Virus record (IMG/VR): IMGVR_UViG_3300047160_036266
Location: 96,001 to 160,000 of that record
Origin: a virus
Taxonomy: Duplodnaviria > Caudoviricetes
Direction: 5' to 3' (one strand)
DNA: 64,000 nt
Positions 1,986 to 36,592 of this stretch are shown here, piece by piece. The notes below the pieces were generated by a model. The model ran no database searches and was not told the origin of the DNA. It saw only the letters and a program-made list of their open reading frames with translations. Position 1 is the stretch's first letter. Each line of letters starts with the position of its first letter. Made by a program: the position numbers and the translations under genes.

Positions 1986-2336
1986 TTAGCTGGTTGCTGA
2001 GTCTTCGGGAGGGGCCTTATCACCCGGCTGCGGCCCCGAACCATCCTGGGTACTTTTCGACAGCACATCCTTCCCTCCTTTGAGTATGTGGCTGGGATAG
2101 CTTATATAGCCGTCCATGCCCTCTTCTTGCTTCTTCTTCTCGTCGTACTCGAAGAAGGAGGAGTAGTTGTCGTTGATGATGACCTCCAGATCGTGGTGGT
2201 CGATGTAATAATCCTTGTATTTGCGGCGGTCCAGTGGGTCGTAGATGCGGAAGAACAACTGGCCGTCCACACCCCGGAGGAGGAAACCCTTGACGTGGTG
2301 GGCCGGCGTTTCATTGGGCTGGAGGGGTCTTGCCAT
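1986..2336 (-). CDS. Hypothetical protein
   Basis: 116-aa ORF in gene-dense minus-strand run. Confidence 0.5.
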   Translation of the reverse strand: MARPLQPNETPAHHVKGFLLRGVDGQLFFRIYDPLDRRKYKDYYIDHHDLEVIINDNYSSFFEYDEKKKQEEGMDGYISYPSHILKGGKDVLSKSTQDGSGPQPGDKAPPEDSATS

Positions 2337-3699
2337 GTGACATCACCTTTGGTTCGATTAGGGTTCCAGGCATGAAAATACCCATGTATTCACGCATGTC
2401 GTCGTAGATCGCCCGTAGCGTCCCCGTCATGGGATTCTTCTTGCACTCCTCAATGTGGACATCGCAGAAGTGGTGCCAGAAGAATGTGAAAAGCAGAAAA
2501 CCTGCCTCCGTCCAGTCATATTCCTCGAAGGCGGCGTTAATGCGCTTCTTAAAGTCCAGCCACTCATTCCAGACCGCCTCATTCTTGCCATCGTCAGTCT
2601 GCAAGTCCAAGAAACGCTTGGCGTTGCGCCACTTATTGACGCAGCGCTTGCCATATTCCATGACGACGGGGTTGATGCGGGCGTCGGACCCGACCTGGGG
2701 TTGTGCGGCCCAATAGCGGACGCCATCCGAAGTATGCTGGTCCATATACTTGCCAGGAGGGACGAAGTTGCCAGCCGTCTTGGAAATCTTCTTCCCTTTA
2801 TCGTCCAGAGCGTGCCCGCAGATCACTATGGTTCGCCACGGTATCTGGTCGTTGTGAAGGACGCTTTTGATGATTGTGAAGAGCGCCCAGGTGCGGATAA
2901 TGTCGTGCGCTTGGAAACGAACGTCGAAGATTGGGCATTTGAGAGTGAGTTCGTACTGGTTGGCCTCGTGCCAGGCTAGTTGCGGCGACAGGCTGGACGT
3001 GTGCCAGGTGTCAAAAACGATACCCGGCTCGCCGGGGATGGGGATGCCGTAGTTCCGTTCCCGGCTGATAGACCAGTCCGAATCGCACTGATCCAGCCAG
3101 GAGAGGAGGCGGCCCTTGTACATCTCCGGCTTCCAAACGATCTGGTCAATGGCGGCACGGATGCGGGGCAGGTTGTCGAGGACTTTGATGAACCAACCCT
3201 CACCCCGGCGAAGCTCGACCTTAGCACCACTGCGCTCGTAGCAACCGTCTTCGGTCAACTCATTTTGGGAGACGGAAACCTTGGTGAGCGGGCAGTAGTA
3301 GTATTCCCGCTCGGCCTTATACGCCTGGCCCTTGTCCACCAAGTCCTTGAAGGACAGTTCGGCCAGTTTGATGGCGAAGGGGCAGAAGGTGGTGTAGTGG
3401 TGCCAGGACCAGGCCATTGCCAGGCGCATGAAGAGAAGGTGGTAAGCGATGGACTCGTGGTAGGAAAAGTCAATGATCTTGTCCTGGTCGGTGATTCCAG
3501 CGGCCTGGGCGAGCTTTTCGGTGGGCAACCCGTTGTTGTCGTAGCAATAGGGGTAGACTAGGTATTCGCCCTTGATGTGGCGGTGGTAACGGGCAATGAA
3601 GTCCATTTGGGCGTAGCTGAAGACGTGCCCCATGTGGAGGTTGCCGCTAATCGTAGGCGGCGGACAGTCGATGAGAAAGCGTTTGTTCTTGTCGTGCAT
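2311..3699 (-). CDS. valS: Miniature valyl-tRNA synthetase (archaeal/type-2-like), no CP1 editing domain, truncated C-terminus
   Basis: IDCPPPTISGNLHMGH (HIGH), YDNNGLPTE, DWSISRER.YGIPIP, FDTW.TSSLSP, QAHDIIRTW, KISKT (KMSKS); start taken at ATG 3699; about 460 aa. Confidence 0.85.
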   Translation of the reverse strand: MHDKNKRFLIDCPPPTISGNLHMGHVFSYAQMDFIARYHRHIKGEYLVYPYCYDNNGLPTEKLAQAAGITDQDKIIDFSYHESIAYHLLFMRLAMAWSWHHYTTFCPFAIKLAELSFKDLVDKGQAYKAEREYYYCPLTKVSVSQNELTEDGCYERSGAKVELRRGEGWFIKVLDNLPRIRAAIDQIVWKPEMYKGRLLSWLDQCDSDWSISRERNYGIPIPGEPGIVFDTWHTSSLSPQLAWHEANQYELTLKCPIFDVRFQAHDIIRTWALFTIIKSVLHNDQIPWRTIVICGHALDDKGKKISKTAGNFVPPGKYMDQHTSDGVRYWAAQPQVGSDARINPVVMEYGKRCVNKWRNAKRFLDLQTDDGKNEAVWNEWLDFKKRINAAFEEYDWTEAGFLLFTFFWHHFCDVHIEECKKNPMTGTLRAIYDDMREYMGIFMPGTLIEPKVMSHGKTPPAQ

Positions 3700-3857
3700 G
3701 GTGGGTTTGTCCGGTGAGAGAGCGTGTGGAAACGACGGGGCCACGCTCCTCCACGGAGACGCAGCCCGAAGCCACGCCCACACGGACAACAAAACTAGCC
3801 GCAAGAACGGTCATGTAGGTATTATACGTCAGTGTCGCTCAAAACGCTACCCGAAAA

Positions 3858-3952
3858 TGCCCAGGGCGGGACTCGAACCCGCACGGGAGTTACCTCCCAC
3901 GGGATTTTAAGCCGACTTAAATCCCGTGTGTCTACCATTCCACCACCTGGGC
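3858..3952 (-). tRNA. tRNA-Leu(TAA), class II, with a 10-nt insertion in the anticodon arm
   Basis: GCCCAGG/CCTGGGC acceptor, A73, D-loop TGG, long variable arm, GGTTCGAGTCC; anticodon arm is 27 nt (CGGGATTTAAGTCGGCTTAAAATCCCG) instead of 17. Confidence 0.85.
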
Positions 3953-6366: not shown

Positions 6367-6381
6367 AGCAGTTCCTTAATA

Positions 6382-6628
6382 GGTAGCACACTCCCGTAAG
6401 CAGGATTCTGTTCTATGCCATCATTTATCTCACAGGCCGTGGTGGGCCTGCGGCCTTGCGGCTGCACCTACCAGACCCGTTGCCCTGCTCACCGGCTGGG
6501 TCTATTTGGTTTGCACCCTCCGGGGTGGTAGCGATACTGAGCCTTGCGGCTGTTCTCTCCCCCGTTAAGCAGTGGTGTCCTGACTTTCCTCTATCCCTTG
6601 CGGGACAGCGATGGCTCGGAGCGCTACC
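6382..6628 (-). ncRNA. rnpB: Minimal RNase P RNA
   Basis: Minus strand: P1 GGTAGCGCTCC/GGAGTGTGCTACC, P2 GCCATC/GATGGC, P3 GTCCC-GCAA-GGGAT, CR-I GAGGAAAGTCAGGACACC, GGGTGCAAACC, GAGCAGGGC, GAGATAAATGATGGC, CR-V AGAACAGAATCCTGCTTA; P4 covaries (AAGTCAGGA/TCCTGCTT); 247 nt. Confidence 0.85.
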
Positions 6629-16866: not shown

Positions 16867-18150
16867 TTATACCGGCTTCCTGTCGGGCTGTAAAGCGATT
16901 CCGGGCGCGAAGCAGCGCAGCATGGGTAGCAGGGCTTCGACCGTCTGGGCGGAAGGTTTCTGCCCCTTATTCTTGTTGTAAAACTCCATGAGGGTCGAGA
17001 CAACCTTGTTGACCTTCCAACTACGCATGTAGTGATGGAGATTGGCGTGCAGGTCGGTGAGGTCGATGTCGTCTTGTCCCGGTTCGGCCAGCCAGCGGCG
17101 CAGTCGGCCCAGGAACCGGCGGATACCCGTAATGGCCTTATCATCCCAATCGCCGCCGTCCTGGTATGGCCCCAGGAACATGAGGTAGAGGCGCAGTTCA
17201 TCCGGGTCGTAGGCGTCCGGGTTGACGGCGTTGCCCTTGCTCTTCCCCATCTTGGCCCCGCCCGCCGTAATCATACCCTGGTGGATCACCTGTTTGAACG
17301 GTTCCTCCTCTTGCACGATCCCCTGGTCGTAGAGGAACATATTGATGAAGCGGGCGTAAATCAGGTGCATACAGGCGTGTTCCGGCCCGCCTACATACAG
17401 GTCCACTTGCTGATATTTCTCCGGGTGCAGGAACGTGTCCGAATCGTTTTCAAGATACCGGAGGAAATAAAAGCTGGAATCCACGAAGGTGTCCAGCGTG
17501 TCGGTTTCGCCCTCGACGGGGATCGGACAGCCCCAGCGGCGCTGGCGGGAAACGCACCAGTCGTGCAGGTTCTCCAGCCAGGCCCGCTGCTGGTTGAGGG
17601 TGCCGATGGGGTAGTCGATCTTGTCCAGGTTGGCGATCAGGCGGTCCTTGTAAGCCGTGGTGCGGAAGAACCACTGGTTGAGCGACCGCTGTTCAATCTT
17701 GGCCTGGCAGCGCTCGCAAAAGCCGCCGCCACACTGCTCTTTGGCCAGTACGGTGTCGCAGGACGGGCAGTAGTTGACGGGACCGAAGGCTTTGTAGGCC
17801 AGGCCGTTCTCGCGCAGCAGGGTAAAGAGCCATTGCGTCCATTTGATGTAGGATGGGTCGCACGTCACCAGTTTTTCCTGGTACACCGTGTTCATGTGTC
17901 GCATCTGGCCCCGGAAGCGTTCGATGTTGGCCCAGGTAACGGTGGCCGGGTCGCCGCCGATGGAACGGGCGTAGTTCTCGGCGGGCAGGCCGAAAGCGTC
18001 GTAGCCAAAGGGCTGGAAGACCTCGATGCCCAGGTAGCGCAGCCACCGGCAGTACGAGTCCACGATGGCGTAGTTGTAGTAGTGCCCCAGGTGCAGGCCG
18101 GCACCGGAGGGATACGGGAACATGACGCAGCAGTAGAATGGCTTGCTCAT
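16867..18150 (-). CDS. leuS: Miniature leucyl-tRNA synthetase, no CP1 editing domain, no C-terminal domain
   Basis: MFPYPSGAGLHLGH, GYDAFGLPAEN, WTQWLF, QWFF, DWCVSRQRRWGCPIP, DTLDTFVDSSFY, YVGGPEHACMHLIYARF, KMGKSKGN; 427 aa. Confidence 0.92.
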   Translation of the reverse strand: MSKPFYCCVMFPYPSGAGLHLGHYYNYAIVDSYCRWLRYLGIEVFQPFGYDAFGLPAENYARSIGGDPATVTWANIERFRGQMRHMNTVYQEKLVTCDPSYIKWTQWLFTLLRENGLAYKAFGPVNYCPSCDTVLAKEQCGGGFCERCQAKIEQRSLNQWFFRTTAYKDRLIANLDKIDYPIGTLNQQRAWLENLHDWCVSRQRRWGCPIPVEGETDTLDTFVDSSFYFLRYLENDSDTFLHPEKYQQVDLYVGGPEHACMHLIYARFINMFLYDQGIVQEEEPFKQVIHQGMITAGGAKMGKSKGNAVNPDAYDPDELRLYLMFLGPYQDGGDWDDKAITGIRRFLGRLRRWLAEPGQDDIDLTDLHANLHHYMRSWKVNKVVSTLMEFYNKNKGQKPSAQTVEALLPMLRCFAPGIALQPDRKPV

Positions 18151-26612: not shown

Positions 26613-26695
26613 TGCCCAGGGTGGGAGTTGAACCCACACGCCCTTACGGGCACACGGCCCTGAACCGTGCGTGGCTGCCATTACACCACCTGGGC
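26613..26695 (-). tRNA. tRNA-Leu(CAG)
   Basis: CACGG-TTCAGGG-CCGTG, long variable arm, GGTTCAACTCC. Confidence 0.92.
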
Positions 26696-26707: not shown

Positions 26708-28357
26708 CTATCCTGCGGCGAGCGGGAGCGATACCCTTCCTGCCGGCTTTTGTTGCTGTTGCGCCTGACGCTTCTTGACATAATCACTAAAACTCGTCGG
26801 CGGCTGGGCAATGTCAAGGTCTTTGTCGAGGTACTGGCTGGCCAACTGGATGAACCTTTGATGCCATCGCTCATGCACCTGCGGGTCCGTATGGAACGAC
26901 TTTTTAATCTGGTTCTCGTCCCGGTCGGCATCGGACGCCACATGAATGTCGTTCTTCAACTCCGTGTCATCATATATCGCCAGGCTGTAAATGTTCAAGT
27001 GGCTGATGATGTCCTTGTTCTCCAACAACCAGTTGTAGGTTTTTCGGTAGGTTTCTTCTGTCTCATCAGGAAAGCCCACGATGATGTTCGGTATCAACCA
27101 GACATTGCCGCCCTCCTGGCGAATTTGCCGTATTTTCGTCGCTGCCAGGTCGATGCTCTTCTCCGTGGCCGGCTTCTTCTGGCTTTTGAGGATGAAGTCG
27201 TTATACGACTCAATCCCCAACTCAATGAACCGTATCCCCGCCTCCTTGATAAACTCGTTGGGCAGCCGCTTACTGGCCATCGTGGAAGCCGTTGTCTGGA
27301 CCACAAACCCCTGGAAATTGGGGTTGCGTTTCTTAATCTCCCAATAGATTTCCGGCAGGAGAGTGTAGTTGTTGGCCTGGCCGAAGGTCTTGTCGTTAAT
27401 GTATACCAGCTTGGACTTTAGCTGGGACAGCGCCTTGGCCTCCTGCTCGATGGTTTCGGTCGGGACTTCCTCCAGCTTGCGCGACACGTCGCAGAATTTG
27501 CACTTGTGGCGACAACCGCTGCTCATACACAGCCTGGGGATGACCGCCGTTCCTCTGAAGAGGTTATAATCGGTGCCGCCCTCCATCCCGCCTTTCTTGT
27601 GCTTTTGTTCGAGGATGAAGTCCTGCATACTGTTGAACACATGCACGTTTTTGAACGGGGCGAATTCTTCCGCCAGGTTGGTGCTGTAGCCGCCCACGGC
27701 AATGGCCCCTGGATAGCTCTGCGCAATGCGCTTAACCTGGGGCAGCACCACGTCCATGACCGAGAAGATGACCTCCTTATATTTCGCCTGGTTGAAGAAC
27801 TGGATCGCTTCGTTCACGTCCCGGACAACGTAAAAGTCAACATTGTTGAGGTTGCGGGAGATGACGGCGACCCAATATGGTACTTCCCAGAAGTCCTCTG
27901 GCTTCTCGTAACCCTGCCGCTTGGCGTACAGCTTCTCGTAATATTCGTCGGCGTAGTTGGGCTTGTGGGTGTACAAGGTCTTGGCGGCGAACTGACAGGC
28001 CAGGATTCGGTCATGGTTGTTAGGGTCCGCCGAGTGTTTCACCCAAATATTTTTTGTCTCTCTGGCTGGGTCGGCGGCTCCGTGTTGGTAATACGGATAG
28101 GCGGTCCCGTAGGGTGTTTTGTCCTTGAAGGAGGCTGGGGCCTGGTGGCCTAGTTCATCGCTCAGGTCGTGGATGTAGCGGTTGAAAACCGGGTCGTTGT
28201 AATCGGGTGCCTGGCCCTGCTGCCGCTCCAACTCGATGATCTTACGCAGATGCCCTTGGTAGAAGGCATCCGGTTTGCCGGGGAAATAACGCTGGAGGCG
28301 GGCCAGATAGTCGTCAGCTTTGGACTCAATGCTTTCGAGAAACCTACGGAAGCGCAT
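26708..28357 (-). CDS. Radical SAM protein (B12-binding-like subclass) with capsid-targeting-like N-terminus
   Basis: GCRHKCKFC (CxxxCxxC), INDKTF, ELGIES, NIIVGFPDETEET; N-terminus MRFRRFLESIE. Confidence 0.8.
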   Translation of the reverse strand: MRFRRFLESIESKADDYLARLQRYFPGKPDAFYQGHLRKIIELERQQGQAPDYNDPVFNRYIHDLSDELGHQAPASFKDKTPYGTAYPYYQHGAADPARETKNIWVKHSADPNNHDRILACQFAAKTLYTHKPNYADEYYEKLYAKRQGYEKPEDFWEVPYWVAVISRNLNNVDFYVVRDVNEAIQFFNQAKYKEVIFSVMDVVLPQVKRIAQSYPGAIAVGGYSTNLAEEFAPFKNVHVFNSMQDFILEQKHKKGGMEGGTDYNLFRGTAVIPRLCMSSGCRHKCKFCDVSRKLEEVPTETIEQEAKALSQLKSKLVYINDKTFGQANNYTLLPEIYWEIKKRNPNFQGFVVQTTASTMASKRLPNEFIKEAGIRFIELGIESYNDFILKSQKKPATEKSIDLAATKIRQIRQEGGNVWLIPNIIVGFPDETEETYRKTYNWLLENKDIISHLNIYSLAIYDDTELKNDIHVASDADRDENQIKKSFHTDPQVHERWHQRFIQLASQYLDKDLDIAQPPTSFSDYVKKRQAQQQQKPAGRVSLPLAAG

Positions 28358-30649: not shown

Positions 30650-30651
30650 AG

Positions 30652-30725
30652 TAGCACGGGTGGGAATTGCACCCACGGCATCTCAGTTTTTGAAACTAAG
30701 TGGTCTACTGTCTGCCTACCGTGCC
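30652..30725 (-). tRNA. Non-canonical tRNA-like gene, anticodon CAA (Leu)
   Basis: GGCACGG/CCGTGCT, A73; D-arm GGCAGACAGTAGACC without GG; 6-bp anticodon stem CTTAGT/ACTGAG; 5-nt variable loop; T-loop TGCAATT; 74 nt. Confidence 0.8.
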
Positions 30726-30729
30726 ATAT

Positions 30730-30840
30730 CCCGTGACAGGAGCATTGCGGTTTTGCGGCTGCGCCGCCTTTACCCCGCTCGCATTAGCCCCATGTCACCT
30801 GCATCCCGATGCGAGCCGTTATGACAGGTCGAGTCACGGG
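30730..30840. ncRNA. Candidate small structured RNA inside the tRNA-like array
   Basis: Closing stem CCCGTGAC/GTCACGGG and internal GCTCGCAT/ATGCGAGC. Confidence 0.35.
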
Positions 30841-30843
30841 AAG

Positions 30844-30917
30844 TGCCCAGGGCCGGAGTTGCACCGGCGGCATCACTGGTTCTAAGCCAATGTGGTCTGC
30901 TGTCTGCCTACCTGGGC
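30844..30917 (-). tRNA. Non-canonical tRNA-like gene, anticodon TAG (Leu)
   Basis: GCCCAGG/CCTGGGC, A73; CATTGG-CTTAGAA-CCAGTG; T-loop TGCAACT; 74 nt. Confidence 0.8.
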
Positions 30918-30920
30918 AAG

Positions 30921-30994
30921 TGGCACGGGTGGGAATTGCACCCACGGCATCGCTGGCTCTCGACCAACGTGGTCTACTGTCTGCCTACCGTGCC
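30921..30994 (-). tRNA. Non-canonical tRNA-like gene, anticodon GAG (Leu)
   Basis: GGCACGG/CCGTGCC, A73; CGTTGG-TCGAGAG-CCAGCG; T-loop TGCAATT; 74 nt. Confidence 0.8.
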
Positions 30995-30998
30995 ATAG

Positions 30999-31072
30999 TG
31001 CCCAGGGTGGGAGTTGCACCCACGGCATCAGAGGTTCTGGACCTCTGTGGTCTGCTGTCTGCCTACCTGGGC
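30999..31072 (-). tRNA. Non-canonical tRNA-like gene, anticodon CAG (Leu)
   Basis: GCCCAGG/CCTGGGC, A73; CAGAGG-TCCAGAA-CCTCTG; T-loop TGCAACT; 74 nt. Confidence 0.8.
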
Positions 31073-31075
31073 CTG

Positions 31076-31423
31076 TTATTGAAGTCGATCTCGGATACTT
31101 TCAAACCACTGGATGAACTTTTCTTTGTTTGGATGTTGCCCTTGCGACACAACCTCCACCGCACGGTCCAGGGCGTAGTGCATATTGCCGATTAGGTCGT
31201 TGAGCCATCGACCCTTGGGGATTGCCGATCTGAGCGCCTTGGCGTCCGCCGGCAAGTGCTGGGCATAAGCCTGCATATTGTGCAGGAGGTTTCCGCCCAT
31301 GTCCCAGCGCCCTTTTAACATTTCCTGCGCTAACCGACCCAGCTTCGTGGTGTTGACCAGGGCATTGGTGACTATCTCTTGGGCTACGTCAGCGGCCTCC
31401 AGCCATTGTCGGAAGGTACTCAT
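31076..31423 (-). CDS. Hypothetical protein with capsid-targeting-like N-terminus
   Basis: MSTFRQWLEAA; TACATA 5 nt upstream. Confidence 0.6.
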   Translation of the reverse strand: MSTFRQWLEAADVAQEIVTNALVNTTKLGRLAQEMLKGRWDMGGNLLHNMQAYAQHLPADAKALRSAIPKGRWLNDLIGNMHYALDRAVEVVSQGQHPNKEKFIQWFESIRDRLQ

Positions 31424-31443
31424 GGAGTTATGTAGGCTTCCCG

Positions 31444-31743
31444 CTACCAAAACGGGTCGCTGTCGGGCTTGCACTCCTCAAAGCCGCCTTCCTTGTCAAA
31501 CATCCGTTCCCACAAGGTCGCGTCCCGATATAGTTCGATGGTCCGGGCTGAACTGCAACAGTCGTGGTAATCATAAGGGTCTTGCTCGTGCAATTCGAGG
31601 TAGGTTGCCTTGTCCTCGAAGAGAATATGCGTGAGCGTCACTCGGTCCTGGCCGAAGCGGCTGACCTTCTGGCCCCGGAAGGCCACGATATTCATGCCGA
31701 TCAGGTCGGTCCACTTCGGAATGCTGGACTTTTTCTTTGCCAT
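31444..31743 (-). CDS. Hypothetical protein
   Basis: MAKKKSS..., GGAGG RBS. Confidence 0.55.
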   Translation of the reverse strand: MAKKKSSIPKWTDLIGMNIVAFRGQKVSRFGQDRVTLTHILFEDKATYLELHEQDPYDYHDCCSSARTIELYRDATLWERMFDKEGGFEECKPDSDPFW

Positions 31744-31755
31744 AATTCCCTCCAG

Positions 31756-31829
31756 TGGCACGGGCCGGACCTGCCCCGGCAGCATCACTGATTTTAAGTC
31801 GGTGTGGTCTTCTTCTTGCCTACCGTGCC
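31756..31829 (-). tRNA. Non-canonical tRNA-like gene, anticodon TAA (Leu)
   Basis: GGCACGG/CCGTGCC, A73; D-arm GGCAAGAAGAAGACC; CACCGA-CTTAAAA-TCAGTG; T-loop GGCAGGT; 74 nt. Confidence 0.75.
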
Positions 31830-31833
31830 AAAA

Positions 31834-31920
31834 TGAGCAGTGGAGGAGTTGAACCACTCGGCATCCGCCCCACTTCTTTAATGCCAACAGTTTTACAGAC
31901 TGCCGTGGGGAACACCGCTC
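31834..31920 (-). tRNA. Atypical tRNA-Tyr(GTA)-like gene lacking a conventional D-arm
   Basis: 8-bp acceptor GAGCGGTG/CACTGCTC; CGGCAGT-CTGTAAA-ACTGTTG; D region reduced to TTCCCCA; irregular T-stem with TTCAACT loop. Confidence 0.55.
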
Positions 31921-32048
31921 AAATTCTTTCGATCCGAATTGACATGATTGCCCAAATGAGTTATTGTCTCCTAACTGTAGTGCGGCTGGACGGGACCGCA
32001 CTACGAGGGCGGGTTGTGCGAGGGGGCACACCCGCCCATTTTATTTAG

Positions 32049-32123
32049 CGCCTGGGAGCGGTATCGCACCGCTGACCTCCGGTGTTTCAAGCCGGCGCTC
32101 TGTCTTGTCTGAGCTACCCAGGC
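32049..32123 (-). tRNA. Non-canonical tRNA-like gene, anticodon GAA (Phe)
   Basis: GCCTGGG/CCCAGGC, G73; D-loop AGACAAGACA (no GG); CCGGC-TTGAAAC-ACCGG; T-loop TGCGATA. Confidence 0.75.
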
Positions 32124-32127
32124 GTAA

Positions 32128-32224
32128 CCGGAGATATATTCGTTAAGGACTGCCGATTTGAACGGCCAATTCCCCTTGTGGGGGAACACATCACCTAGAA
32201 GTATTCCTTAACTGCACCATCCGG
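32128..32224 (-). ncRNA. Y-RNA-like element 1
   Basis: CCGGA/TCCGG ends, GGTGCAG-TTAAGGA-ATACTTC motif, T-arm GCCG-TTCAAAT-CGGC, TTAAGGA/TCCTTAA stem. Confidence 0.5.
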
Positions 32225-32227
32225 TAG

Positions 32228-32300
32228 TGCCTGGGGTCGGAGTCGCACCGACGACCTCTTGCTCTTCAGGCAAGCGCTCTACTGGTTGAGCTACCCAGGC
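32228..32300 (-). tRNA. Non-canonical tRNA-like gene, anticodon GAA (Phe)
   Basis: GCCTGGG/CCCAGGC, A73; D-loop AACCAGTA (no GG); CTTGC-CTGAAGA-GCAAG; T-loop TGCGACT; 73 nt. Confidence 0.8.
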
Positions 32301-32306
32301 ATATAA

Positions 32307-32450
32307 GGCAGGAGAAAAAGACGCTGAGAGAGATTTTTCCCGCTCTACCACTGAGCTACCTCCCAATAATTTCAGAGTTGGGAGGGTCGGGATCGAACCG
32401 ACGACCTGGCGCTTTTCATGCGAAGTAACCCTCAACTGCACCGTCCTGCC
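32307..32450 (-). ncRNA. Y-RNA-like (YrlA-type) tRNA mimic
   Basis: GGCAGGA/TCCTGCC ends; GGTGCAG-TTGAGGG-TTACTTC; T-arm GTCGG-TTCGATC-CCGAC; loop-closed acceptor CCTCCCAA/TTGGGAGG; D-arm GCTC-AGTGGTA-GAGC; no anticodon loop. Confidence 0.65.
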
Positions 32451-32698: not shown

Positions 32699-32768
32699 GG
32701 CGGGAGATATAAACGGTGAGGGGGGTTTTCTTTTCAAGAGAAGTATCCCTCATCTGCACCATCCCGCC
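32699..32768 (-). ncRNA. Y-RNA-like element 3 (stem only)
   Basis: GGCGGGA/TCCCGCC, GGTGCAG-ATGAGGG-ATACTTC, TGAGGG/CCCTCA. Confidence 0.5.
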
Positions 32769-32771
32769 GAG

Positions 32772-35746: not shown

Positions 35747-36514
35747 TCAATTTTCGAGAATTCCAAGGAAATTCGCCATCACCCGGTCGGTGCCGATGGC
35801 AACCTCCAGGCAGTGCGCCCCCTGGATGGCTGCCCGCCGGCCCTGGTCATCTTCGATAGTCCGGGTGAAGTCCTTACGACGGCTGATGCTGCAAAGCTCC
35901 AGGCCCGTCCGCTCCAGCACAATATCCATCGTGGACTCGGAATAGTCCGGGAGCCGGTCGCTTTCCTCGACCTTGCAAGGGCCGAGAAGCTGGACGAAGG
36001 CTTTCAGCAGGTAATCAAGGACCAAGGGCCGGTAGTCGTTGCCGGTGGTAAGGCCGTAGAGGCACTGGAATTCAAGCTGATAGAACTCCTTGAGCCGCAT
36101 GTGCTTCTGGGGCTGGTCCTGCTCCCGGCGGAAGCTCTTGCCGTGCTGCCAGACACAGAGGGGAAGGCGGACGCCGGTGTGGTGGTCCAGCAGGTAGCGG
36201 GCGTACTGGTAGCTGCCCATCGTGGTTTCGGGGCGCAGCGCGATATTGTCGAAGAGCATGATGTCTCTCGTCTCGTCTGCTGCGTCCTGGGTGAGCGTGG
36301 CCGGCATGAAGATATTGTCGCCAGTGTAGTTGTCGTTGATGAGATGGCGGGGCGTCAGCAGCGGGGCCTCGACCTGGACCATCTCGAAGGCCCGGTTTTG
36401 CTTTTTAAGAGCTTGGCCCATCACCAGGACGAACCGCTCCTCGATCATCCGCCGGACCTTGATCTGCTCCTCGTTCCAGAAGATCAAGCCGTTCTTGTCG
36501 TACAAATTCATCAT
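35747..36514 (-). CDS. Class II aminoacyl-tRNA synthetase catalytic core only (alpha2 GlyRS-like)
   Basis: Motif 1 VEAPLLTP, LRPETT, motif 2 GKSFRRE...MRLKEFYQLEFQ, motif 3 CLEVAIGTDR; 255 aa, no anticodon-binding domain. Confidence 0.75.
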   Translation of the reverse strand: MMNLYDKNGLIFWNEEQIKVRRMIEERFVLVMGQALKKQNRAFEMVQVEAPLLTPRHLINDNYTGDNIFMPATLTQDAADETRDIMLFDNIALRPETTMGSYQYARYLLDHHTGVRLPLCVWQHGKSFRREQDQPQKHMRLKEFYQLEFQCLYGLTTGNDYRPLVLDYLLKAFVQLLGPCKVEESDRLPDYSESTMDIVLERTGLELCSISRRKDFTRTIEDDQGRRAAIQGAHCLEVAIGTDRVMANFLGILEN

Positions 36515-36592
36515 ATGTAGCCTCGCCTTCCTTCTCGCACCGTGGGGAACAGTAGGCCGGCGGAAGCTTTCCCGCCGGCACATAGTAGGTTT

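Follow-up and report, generated by a model that had tools for sequence, protein, structure and literature searches.

Bacterial tRNA-Leu is taught as a class II tRNA with a long variable arm, and the contact between G18 and Psi55 ranks among the most conserved in tRNA. Type I forms of tRNA-Leu, which have a short variable loop, are already known from mitochondria and from Streptomyces coelicolor, where a tRNA-Leu(CAA) of this kind shares its compartment with class II tRNA-Leu and where one leucyl-tRNA synthetase (LeuRS) charges both types (PMC6614811). The catalytic efficiency with this Streptomyces tRNA is 113% without G18/G19 and 96% without U55/C56 (PMC6614811). Accessory tRNA arrays are known as well, and in L-arrays such as the trn operon of Anabaena sp. 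PCC 7120 (PMC8421152) and the mycobacterial and phage tRNA array units (PMC5966550), supernumerary tRNA genes form dense same-strand clusters that spread horizontally. Here we describe five short tRNA-Leu genes in a 64,000-nucleotide (nt) stretch of a giant soil phage, hereafter called the window, which comprises bases 96001-160000 of the 343-kb IMG/VR virus record IMGVR_UViG_3300047160_036266. We consider it probable that these genes encode working type I leucine isoacceptors, and that they belong to a mobile lineage found in phages and in accessory arrays of Planctomycetota. The record is estimated to be 69% complete, so all absences of genes from the phage genome that are reported below are soft.

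All five genes are 74 nt long, lie on the minus strand and carry different leucine anticodons, namely CAA (30652..30725), TAG (30844..30917), GAG (30921..30994), CAG (30999..31072) and TAA (31756..31829), with spacers of only 3-4 nt between three of them. An initial annotation made from the letters alone had placed the genes here, and ARAGORN, Rfam and a covariance model of the family together bear it out. The suspicion that standard tools might miss such genes was justified in part. ARAGORN calls three of the five, each one position longer (CAA, 30651-30725; TAG, 30843-30917; CAG, 30998-31072), and four reach the 29-bit gathering score of the Rfam tRNA model RF00005, with 37 bits for CAA, 36.1 for TAG, 31.3 for GAG and 34 for CAG, although Rfam run at its gathering threshold recovered just one of the five. 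The TAA copy is missed by both programs, and annotation tools can thus be said to under-call the short Leu genes. With the family model the scores are 95.7 (CAA), 98.3 (TAG), 98.2 (GAG), 97.7 (CAG) and 89.5 bits (TAA).

The genes combine a leucine anticodon, a covarying cloverleaf and a variable loop of 5 nt (RUGCY, or RUACC in one TAG lineage), within the 4-5 nt that define type I tRNAs. The remaining structural description in the initial annotation was also accurate: there is no long variable arm, the T loop reads GGC in the TAA copy and TGC in the others, and the anticodon stem is six base pairs long, the extra pair joining positions 26 and 44. A73 is present in all five, and the acceptor GCCCAGG/CCTGGGC of the TAG and CAG copies is common to the phage's class II Leu-AAG and Leu-CAG. 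The CAG copy resembles class II Leu-CAG (26613-26695) throughout the acceptor stem, T stem and T loop except at position 55, and the T stem GTGGG/CCCAC is identical in the two forms. Leucine identity elements outside the anticodon (A73, U8:A14 and the 15-48 Levitt pair; elements from PMC9976931 and PMC6614811) are likewise in place. None of the five genes encodes CCA.

The five genes together cover the Leu codon boxes. They had been regarded as a second copy of the anticodon set carried by the class II genes, and this holds for four anticodons. The class II set of both the window and the whole genome is AAG, TAG, CAA, GAG and CAG, however, and includes no TAA. The short TAA gene is therefore the genome's only tRNA-Leu with a UAA anticodon, and it fills a gap rather than duplicating another gene. 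In their leucine anticodon, short variable loop, U8:A14 pair and coexistence with class II tRNA-Leu, these genes match the Streptomyces and mitochondrial type I tRNAs. They differ from the Streptomyces tRNA in their phage or mobile-array setting, as opposed to that of a housekeeping gene, in the presence of five isoacceptors instead of one, in the 6-bp anticodon stem, in having A37 in the readers of CUN codons, and in a naturally altered elbow.

A search for relatives with a degenerate D-arm pattern retrieved 64 metagenome stretches (the labels L005, L028, L046 and so forth denote the metagenome or phage stretches compared). True relatives among them were picked with the family covariance model (R1), which was built without any D-arm pairs and gave 33 matches above 74 bits. 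The true relatives lie in L005/L066, L006, L017, L028 and L046, with one copy in L067, and the CAA copy of the window recurs identically in L006 and L046. All five anticodons, CAA, TAA, CAG, TAG and GAG, are present in each of L005/L066, L028 and L046, and four of them are present in L017, where the contig end cuts the locus. Flanking proteins of these contigs are 55-91% identical to those of the window, and the contigs therefore represent distinct related phages.

The resulting alignment of 22 distinct sequences is what the initial annotation had proposed to assemble as a test for covariation. In these sequences 99.6% of the stem cells form standard pairs, and 14 pairs show compensatory changes on both sides. 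None of 500 shuffles was as good as the real alignment, and slid registers were also far off. The 15-48 Levitt pair is G-C in 12 sequences and A-U in the other 10, without exception; the 26-44 pair covaries among C-G, G-C and U-A; and the TAA copies of the window and L046 differ by a compensatory exchange of A-U for G-C in the anticodon stem. U8, A14 and A73 are invariant. This recurrence in related contigs, coupled with the strong covariation, places the short Leu family far beyond chance. Judging from the substitutions, purifying selection maintains the tRNA fold, and the anticodons are conserved, which upholds the earlier view of a selected and diversified family as opposed to decay. The idea that the genes are decaying or non-functional tRNA copies could draw on their low Rfam scores (31-37 bits), on the failure of standard tools to find the TAA copy and on the presence of C33 in two of the genes. 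However, it is contradicted by the near-complete pairing, by the many compensatory changes and by the preservation of anticodon sets across contigs whose proteins have diverged this far, and we regard it as extremely improbable.

The D arm is best read as G10-C25, G11-C24 and a weak third pair, closing an 8-nt loop with the sequence A14-R15-N-N-A18-G19-Y20-A21. RNAalifold offered an alternative fold in which positions 10-13 pair with 46-49. We rejected this fold, as column 49 covaries perfectly with column 14 (the R15-Y48 Levitt pair), and the helix is also broken in one TAG lineage (L005/L066 and L017), which has TACC for TGCC.

The initial annotation had taken the D-loop G18G19 to be lost. 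There is indeed no GG, but an invariant AG occupies the site, such that only G18 has been replaced and G19 still pairs with the invariant C56. Whereas a canonical elbow has G18:U55 and G19:C56, all 22 family members have A18 and G55. We conclude that the elbow is remodelled and not lost, with G18/U55 exchanged for A18/G55 and G19-C56 kept. The two positions move together. In the clade of the window, all 26 tRNAs with G55 (22 short Leu and four Phe) have AG and no GG, and all of the approximately 38 tRNAs with U55 have GG.

Two tRNA-Phe(GAA) genes of the window share the A18/G55 elbow, and both are called by ARAGORN on the minus strand. One of them (32228..32300; Rfam 68.8 bits) has orthologues in L005, L028 and L067 that read GG/TTC, and the window copy alone reads AG/TGC, which identifies it as an independent elbow switch. 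The second (32049..32123; Rfam 52.5 bits) has an elbow that is conserved in L005 and L028. More widely, G55 occurs in 47 of about 1,800 distinct tRNAs from phage and Planctomycetota arrays, with Thr, Ala, Met, Ile, Gly, Lys and Leu tRNAs among them. When the D stem could be parsed (n = 40), 29 of the G55 tRNAs had no GG and 11 had GG, and most of these 11 read AGG, so A may still occupy position 18. By comparison, the array tRNAs with U55 number 25 without GG and 1431 with GG (odds ratio 151, Fisher p = 3e-37). The joint switch to G55 without GG thus occurs in about 2% of these array tRNAs. The 18:55 swap is evidently a coupled change, and A18:G55 has apparently replaced G18:U55 repeatedly in mobile tRNAs, with G19-C56 kept. 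No G55 was found among the approximately 200 tRNAs that adjoin mini-LeuRS genes (see below) in other huge phages, and neither a natural A18/G55 pair nor a phage type I tRNA-Leu was found described in the literature that could be searched. A second swap of this sort may be present elsewhere in the elbow: huge-phage tRNA-Arg genes in L126 and L158 have TTT T loops (U56) together with TGAATA D loops (A19), which looks like covariation of G19-C56 to A19-U56.

Staphylococcal non-proteinogenic tRNA-Gly species read UGC in place of T-Psi-C and lack the D-loop GG. The initial annotation pointed to this likeness and suggested that the short genes may supply leucyl groups outside the ribosome, or serve as decoys for anticodon nucleases or Leu-sensing systems, or as tRNAs for a rewired ribosome interface. 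The likeness is real but superficial. The staphylococcal tRNAs are redundant copies of one anticodon, have T stems that weaken EF-Tu binding and work with Fem transferases; the phage set has five distinct anticodons that are conserved across genomes, a T stem identical to that of canonical tRNA-Leu, and a compensated 18:55 swap in which G19-C56 persists. A donor role might still be read into the fact that leucine and phenylalanine are the two donors used by leucyl/phenylalanyl-tRNA-protein transferase (L/F-transferase). No match to L/F-transferase (PF03588) or Fem (PF02388) was found in the 343-kb record, an absence that is soft at this completeness, and in some phage arrays a canonical-elbow version of the same scaffold is the sole tRNA-Leu. 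The proposals for donors, decoys or a rewired ribosome interface are therefore not supported, and we consider a role as leucyl donors or decoys to be very improbable.

The canonical-elbow version belongs to a much larger family. Its scaffold (GTAGGCAA...GGYAGACCAC) was found on 35 IMG/VR stretches, and in 24 of these, from about 20 contigs, ARAGORN confirmed a tRNA on the scaffold. All have Leu anticodons, including one CAA copy that ARAGORN mislabelled as SeC. Within the parts covered of arrays such as L216, L197 and L204, the scaffold is the only type of tRNA-Leu and stands beside a normal set of other tRNAs. The canonical-elbow relatives read GGYAGAC in the D loop, which is the class II tRNA-Leu motif, and with the altered elbow included the motif becomes (G/A)GYAGAC. 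The scaffold can therefore be viewed as a class II tRNA-Leu minus its variable arm.

Bacterial chromosomes hold the scaffold as well, in at least 120 stretches of species-representative genomes. Among titled loci with a confirmed tRNA, 50 of 55 are from Planctomycetota, mostly within arrays of 20-43 tRNA genes. We considered whether type I tRNA-Leu might be a native housekeeping tRNA of Planctomycetota, and rejected this for the isolate Singulisphaera sp. GP187 (G080), where the scaffold occurs once, as a supernumerary gene of a small cluster, and a full class II Leu set is located elsewhere. On the same grounds, the scaffold lineage is best seen as accessory and mobile. There are hints, no more, that such phages infect Planctomycetota. 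As in L-arrays, dense same-strand clusters of supernumerary tRNAs are common to distant genomes, here the phage and Planctomycetota arrays, and PMC8421152 lists Planctomycetes among the phyla with L-arrays. Neither type I tRNA-Leu nor an 18:55 swap is mentioned in the parts of PMC8421152 and PMC5966550 that were searched. The cluster in the window departs from the L-array pattern in holding only Leu, Phe and Ser tRNAs and a Tyr-like gene, with protein genes interspersed, and in residing in a huge phage with mini-synthetases. ARAGORN finds every tRNA gene of the window on the minus strand, and in the whole record it reports Leu, Phe and Ser tRNAs and a transfer-messenger RNA, with no other tRNA types.

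Two features of the arrays deserve separate mention. The cluster in Singulisphaera sp. GP187 (contig C4, 1209080-1211330) contains low-scoring extra His, Ser-GGA, Arg-TCG and Leu-GAG genes along with the type I Leu-TAG, and it looks like the remnant of a mobile tRNA array in a genome whose standard Leu set is complete. Furthermore, four IMG/VR huge phages (L114, L126, L127 and L128) and three Planctomycetota arrays (L225, L259 and L261) carry 84-96-nt versions of tRNAs that normally have 72-77 nt, covering Asn, Thr, Val, Met, Cys, Arg, His, Glu, Asp, Gln, Ile, Gly, Ala and Pro, with short versions alongside. These might carry inserts, introns or long variable arms, and represent the mirror image of the short tRNA-Leu.

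We believe that ribosomal decoding is the best account of the short genes, because full anticodon sets are conserved, the TAA gene is unique, the T stem is canonical, the tertiary pairs of the L shape are kept, and the scaffold serves as the sole tRNA-Leu in some arrays. Under this account, multi-tRNA precursors would be transcribed from the minus strand and cut by RNase P, and CCA would be added by a CCA-adding enzyme, of which family the phage has two members. Leucine would then be attached by the LeuRS of the host, by the mini-LeuRS of the phage or by both, and EF-Tu would carry the charged tRNAs to the ribosome for use. Since removal of elbow nucleotides leaves the charging of the Streptomyces type I tRNA intact, the elbow may be free to change in a type I scaffold, and the swap would be tolerated if type I leucylation is largely elbow-independent, as was measured for S. 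coelicolor tRNA-Leu(CAA).

Several observations weigh against this account. Near-universal U33 is replaced by C33 in the GAG and CAG copies; C33 recurs in the GAG copy of L028, and the copies of L005 and L017 have U33. All three CUN readers have A37, where class II Leu-CAG and Leu-GAG of the phage have G37, and the TAA copy has an odd T loop, GGCAGGT, with G54 and G58 in addition to G55. The Streptomyces type I tRNA-Leu is not charged by E. coli LeuRS (PMC6614811), and a host LeuRS can be named only as a candidate for charging the short tRNAs. With regard to expression, 24 public runs contain this DNA, but they are DNA runs or hold uninformative contigs, and the two that are labelled metatranscriptomic consist of short contigs that include coding sequence. 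Finally, decoding offers no reason for a phage to keep a type I set besides its class II one, nor for the repeated appearance of A18:G55.

Among the candidate charging enzymes is a 427-amino-acid (aa) mini-LeuRS encoded in the window itself (16867..18150, minus strand), which matches the NCBIfam model leuS_bact with 380 bits in four stretches. In comparison with the Thermus thermophilus enzyme, it is without the CP1 editing domain (approximately 229-417), the leucine-specific domain (approximately 580-635) and the C-terminal domain. It is one of a large family of proteins that are 410-440 aa long and 64-88% identical and that occur on huge-phage contigs of up to 630 kb; one is from a deposited 635-kb uncultured phage. 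One could propose that the short tRNAs are dedicated substrates of this enzyme, forming a leucylation circuit that is independent of the host. The missing domains would fit this proposal, in that the C-terminal domain contacts both the elbow (G19:C56) and the variable arm, and its deletion abolishes charging by the E. coli and T. thermophilus LeuRS (PMC3561953). Furthermore, a short tRNA-Leu lies within 10 kb of the mini-LeuRS gene in 12 of the 16 IMG/VR loci that hold any tRNA-Leu. However, the enzyme is found in only 3 of 34 scaffold-bearing phage records and in none of the five with a completeness of 90% or more, the scaffold also occurs in Planctomycetota chromosomes, and the A18:G55 tRNA-Phe genes are not accompanied by any phage gene for phenylalanyl-tRNA synthetase. 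In a genome that is 69% complete, the last of these absences is soft. We therefore rejected the mini-LeuRS as an obligatory partner. A dedicated pair is unlikely, and a leucylation circuit of this kind seems quite improbable to us; the mini-LeuRS may well be a possible, not an obligatory, charging enzyme for the short tRNAs within the decoding account.

A different proposal addresses why a phage would keep tRNAs of unusual shape. The short tRNAs might still decode, with the short variable loop and altered elbow of the Leu and Phe tRNAs selected because they make poor substrates for toxins that recognise the long variable arm of class II tRNAs or that need the canonical corner of the D and T loops. 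The tRNA genes of this genome are Leu, Phe and Ser by ARAGORN, with a degenerate Tyr-like gene, and class II consists of the Leu, Ser and Tyr families. Toxins with suitable preferences are on record: in tRNA-Ser, MenT3 depends on the long variable loop and on the core formed by the D and T loops, and it adds CMP weakly to tRNA-Leu and tRNA-Tyr (PMC11162799), while AbiEii, an abortive-infection toxin, seems to favour tRNAs of class II (bioRxiv 10.64898/2026.01.19.700257). Among the class II families, loss of the arm is feasible for Leu alone, as bacterial LeuRS does not need it (PMC9976931), and A18:G55 has several independent origins. It is also established that phage tRNAs can evade tRNA-targeting defences (PMC10264068, PMC11464382). 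In those cases, which include the T5 tRNA-Lys that escapes PARIS (PMC11464382) and anticodon-loop variants (PMC10264068), isoacceptors likewise duplicate a host function and differ at sites that a nuclease could read, but the differences are in the anticodon stem-loop and not in the variable arm and elbow.

Despite these parallels, the toxin itself is hypothetical, and the phage retains class II Leu genes and Ser tRNAs of canonical form, which would stay vulnerable. The elbow of tRNA-Phe, a class I tRNA, has changed too, and G55 in the Thr, Ala, Met, Ile, Gly and Lys tRNAs of arrays leaves no Leu-specific pressure evident. Selection by toxins is therefore an unlikely explanation, albeit one to be taken seriously. 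We give a slightly warmer, still doubtful, reception to the more general idea that the type I shape and the A18:G55 corner form an adaptive disguise, under which the ribosome and an elbow-blind LeuRS, either the mini-LeuRS or one from Planctomycetota, could still use the tRNAs and factors that read the arm or the corner would miss them. If this were true, the readers escaped could include nucleotidyltransferase toxins of the MenT and AbiEii type, T-loop nucleases or host modification enzymes, and the A18:G55 tRNAs of phages and arrays would constitute a counter-defence or a stress-proof translation set.

Given that type I tRNA-Leu and accessory tRNA arrays were known beforehand, it seems appropriate to state what is added here. 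New is a complete set of type I tRNA-Leu isoacceptors that is borne by huge phages, apparently kept by selection, and equipped with an A18:G55 elbow. For tRNA structural biologists, A18:G55 represents a natural alternative elbow. For synthetic biology, a 427-aa LeuRS without editing or elbow-binding domains and a set of arm-less Leu tRNAs are candidate parts, and for phage biology the genes supply a concrete hypothesis on the escape from toxins that target class II tRNAs. A blastn comparison of the gene cluster with 50,697 phages, cultured or deposited, gave no match, exact patterns drawn from the D arm and the T arm of the A18:G55 form gave none in IMG/VR, and the same D-arm pattern gave 34 matches in 185k species genomes, all of them chance matches, with none confirmed by the family model. 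A scan for promoters and terminators found sites no more numerous than in shuffled sequence.

Other genes of the phage are also related to translation. On the minus strand at 6379..6627 is a 249-nt RNase P RNA of bacterial type A (Rfam RF00010, 65.9 bits against a gathering score of 100, E = 2.6e-19) in which parts of the catalytic domain align and 105 positions of the specificity domain are replaced by 8 nt; it is possible that this mini RNase P RNA serves to process tRNA precursors. A 497-aa ValRS-like protein without the CP1 editing domain (2311-3804, minus strand) and a 278-aa class II synthetase core with weak matches to GlyRS and HisRS (35747-36583, minus strand) are encoded in the window, as is a methionine aminopeptidase. 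Elsewhere in the genome are a ThrRS-like gene, a third class Ia synthetase and the two enzymes of the CCA-adding family. No tRNA-Val or tRNA-Thr genes were found in the phage genome, and patterns for close relatives of the mini-ValRS found none in IMG/VR. With 95 nt, the class II tRNA-Leu(AAG) (3858-3952, minus strand), which adjoins the mini-ValRS gene, exceeds its neighbours in length by about 10 nt.

A gene for a 549-aa radical SAM protein (26708-28357, minus strand), which weakly matches models of class B methyltransferases and of MiaB/RimO, stands between the class II Leu cluster and the type I cluster. The synteny is kept in L046 and L017, and the protein may modify tRNA. Next to the TAA gene, the Tyr(GTA)-like gene (31834-31921, minus strand) has 88 nt, a poor cloverleaf, a score of 29 bits with the selenocysteine tRNA model and no ARAGORN call; an intact class II tRNA-Tyr lies directly beside a short tRNA-Leu in L028 (2377-2458), and the tRNA cluster of L067 has another.

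A circularly permuted tRNA-like element is located in the window at 32339-32409 and in L028 at 3600-3668, on the minus strand in both. Its layout is a T arm with the 3' acceptor strand, a short loop, and then the 5' acceptor strand with the D arm; it scores 31-33 bits with the Rfam model YrlA, below threshold, and no Ro60/TROVE gene was found in the phage genome. A motif of approximately 25 nt, GGTGCAG-W-T-R-AGGR-W-TACTTC, occurs on the minus strand at about 32195-32226, 32415-32445 and 32740-32771, in each case just downstream of a tRNA or tRNA-like gene, and may form stems of a Y-RNA-like module or act as a processing signal.

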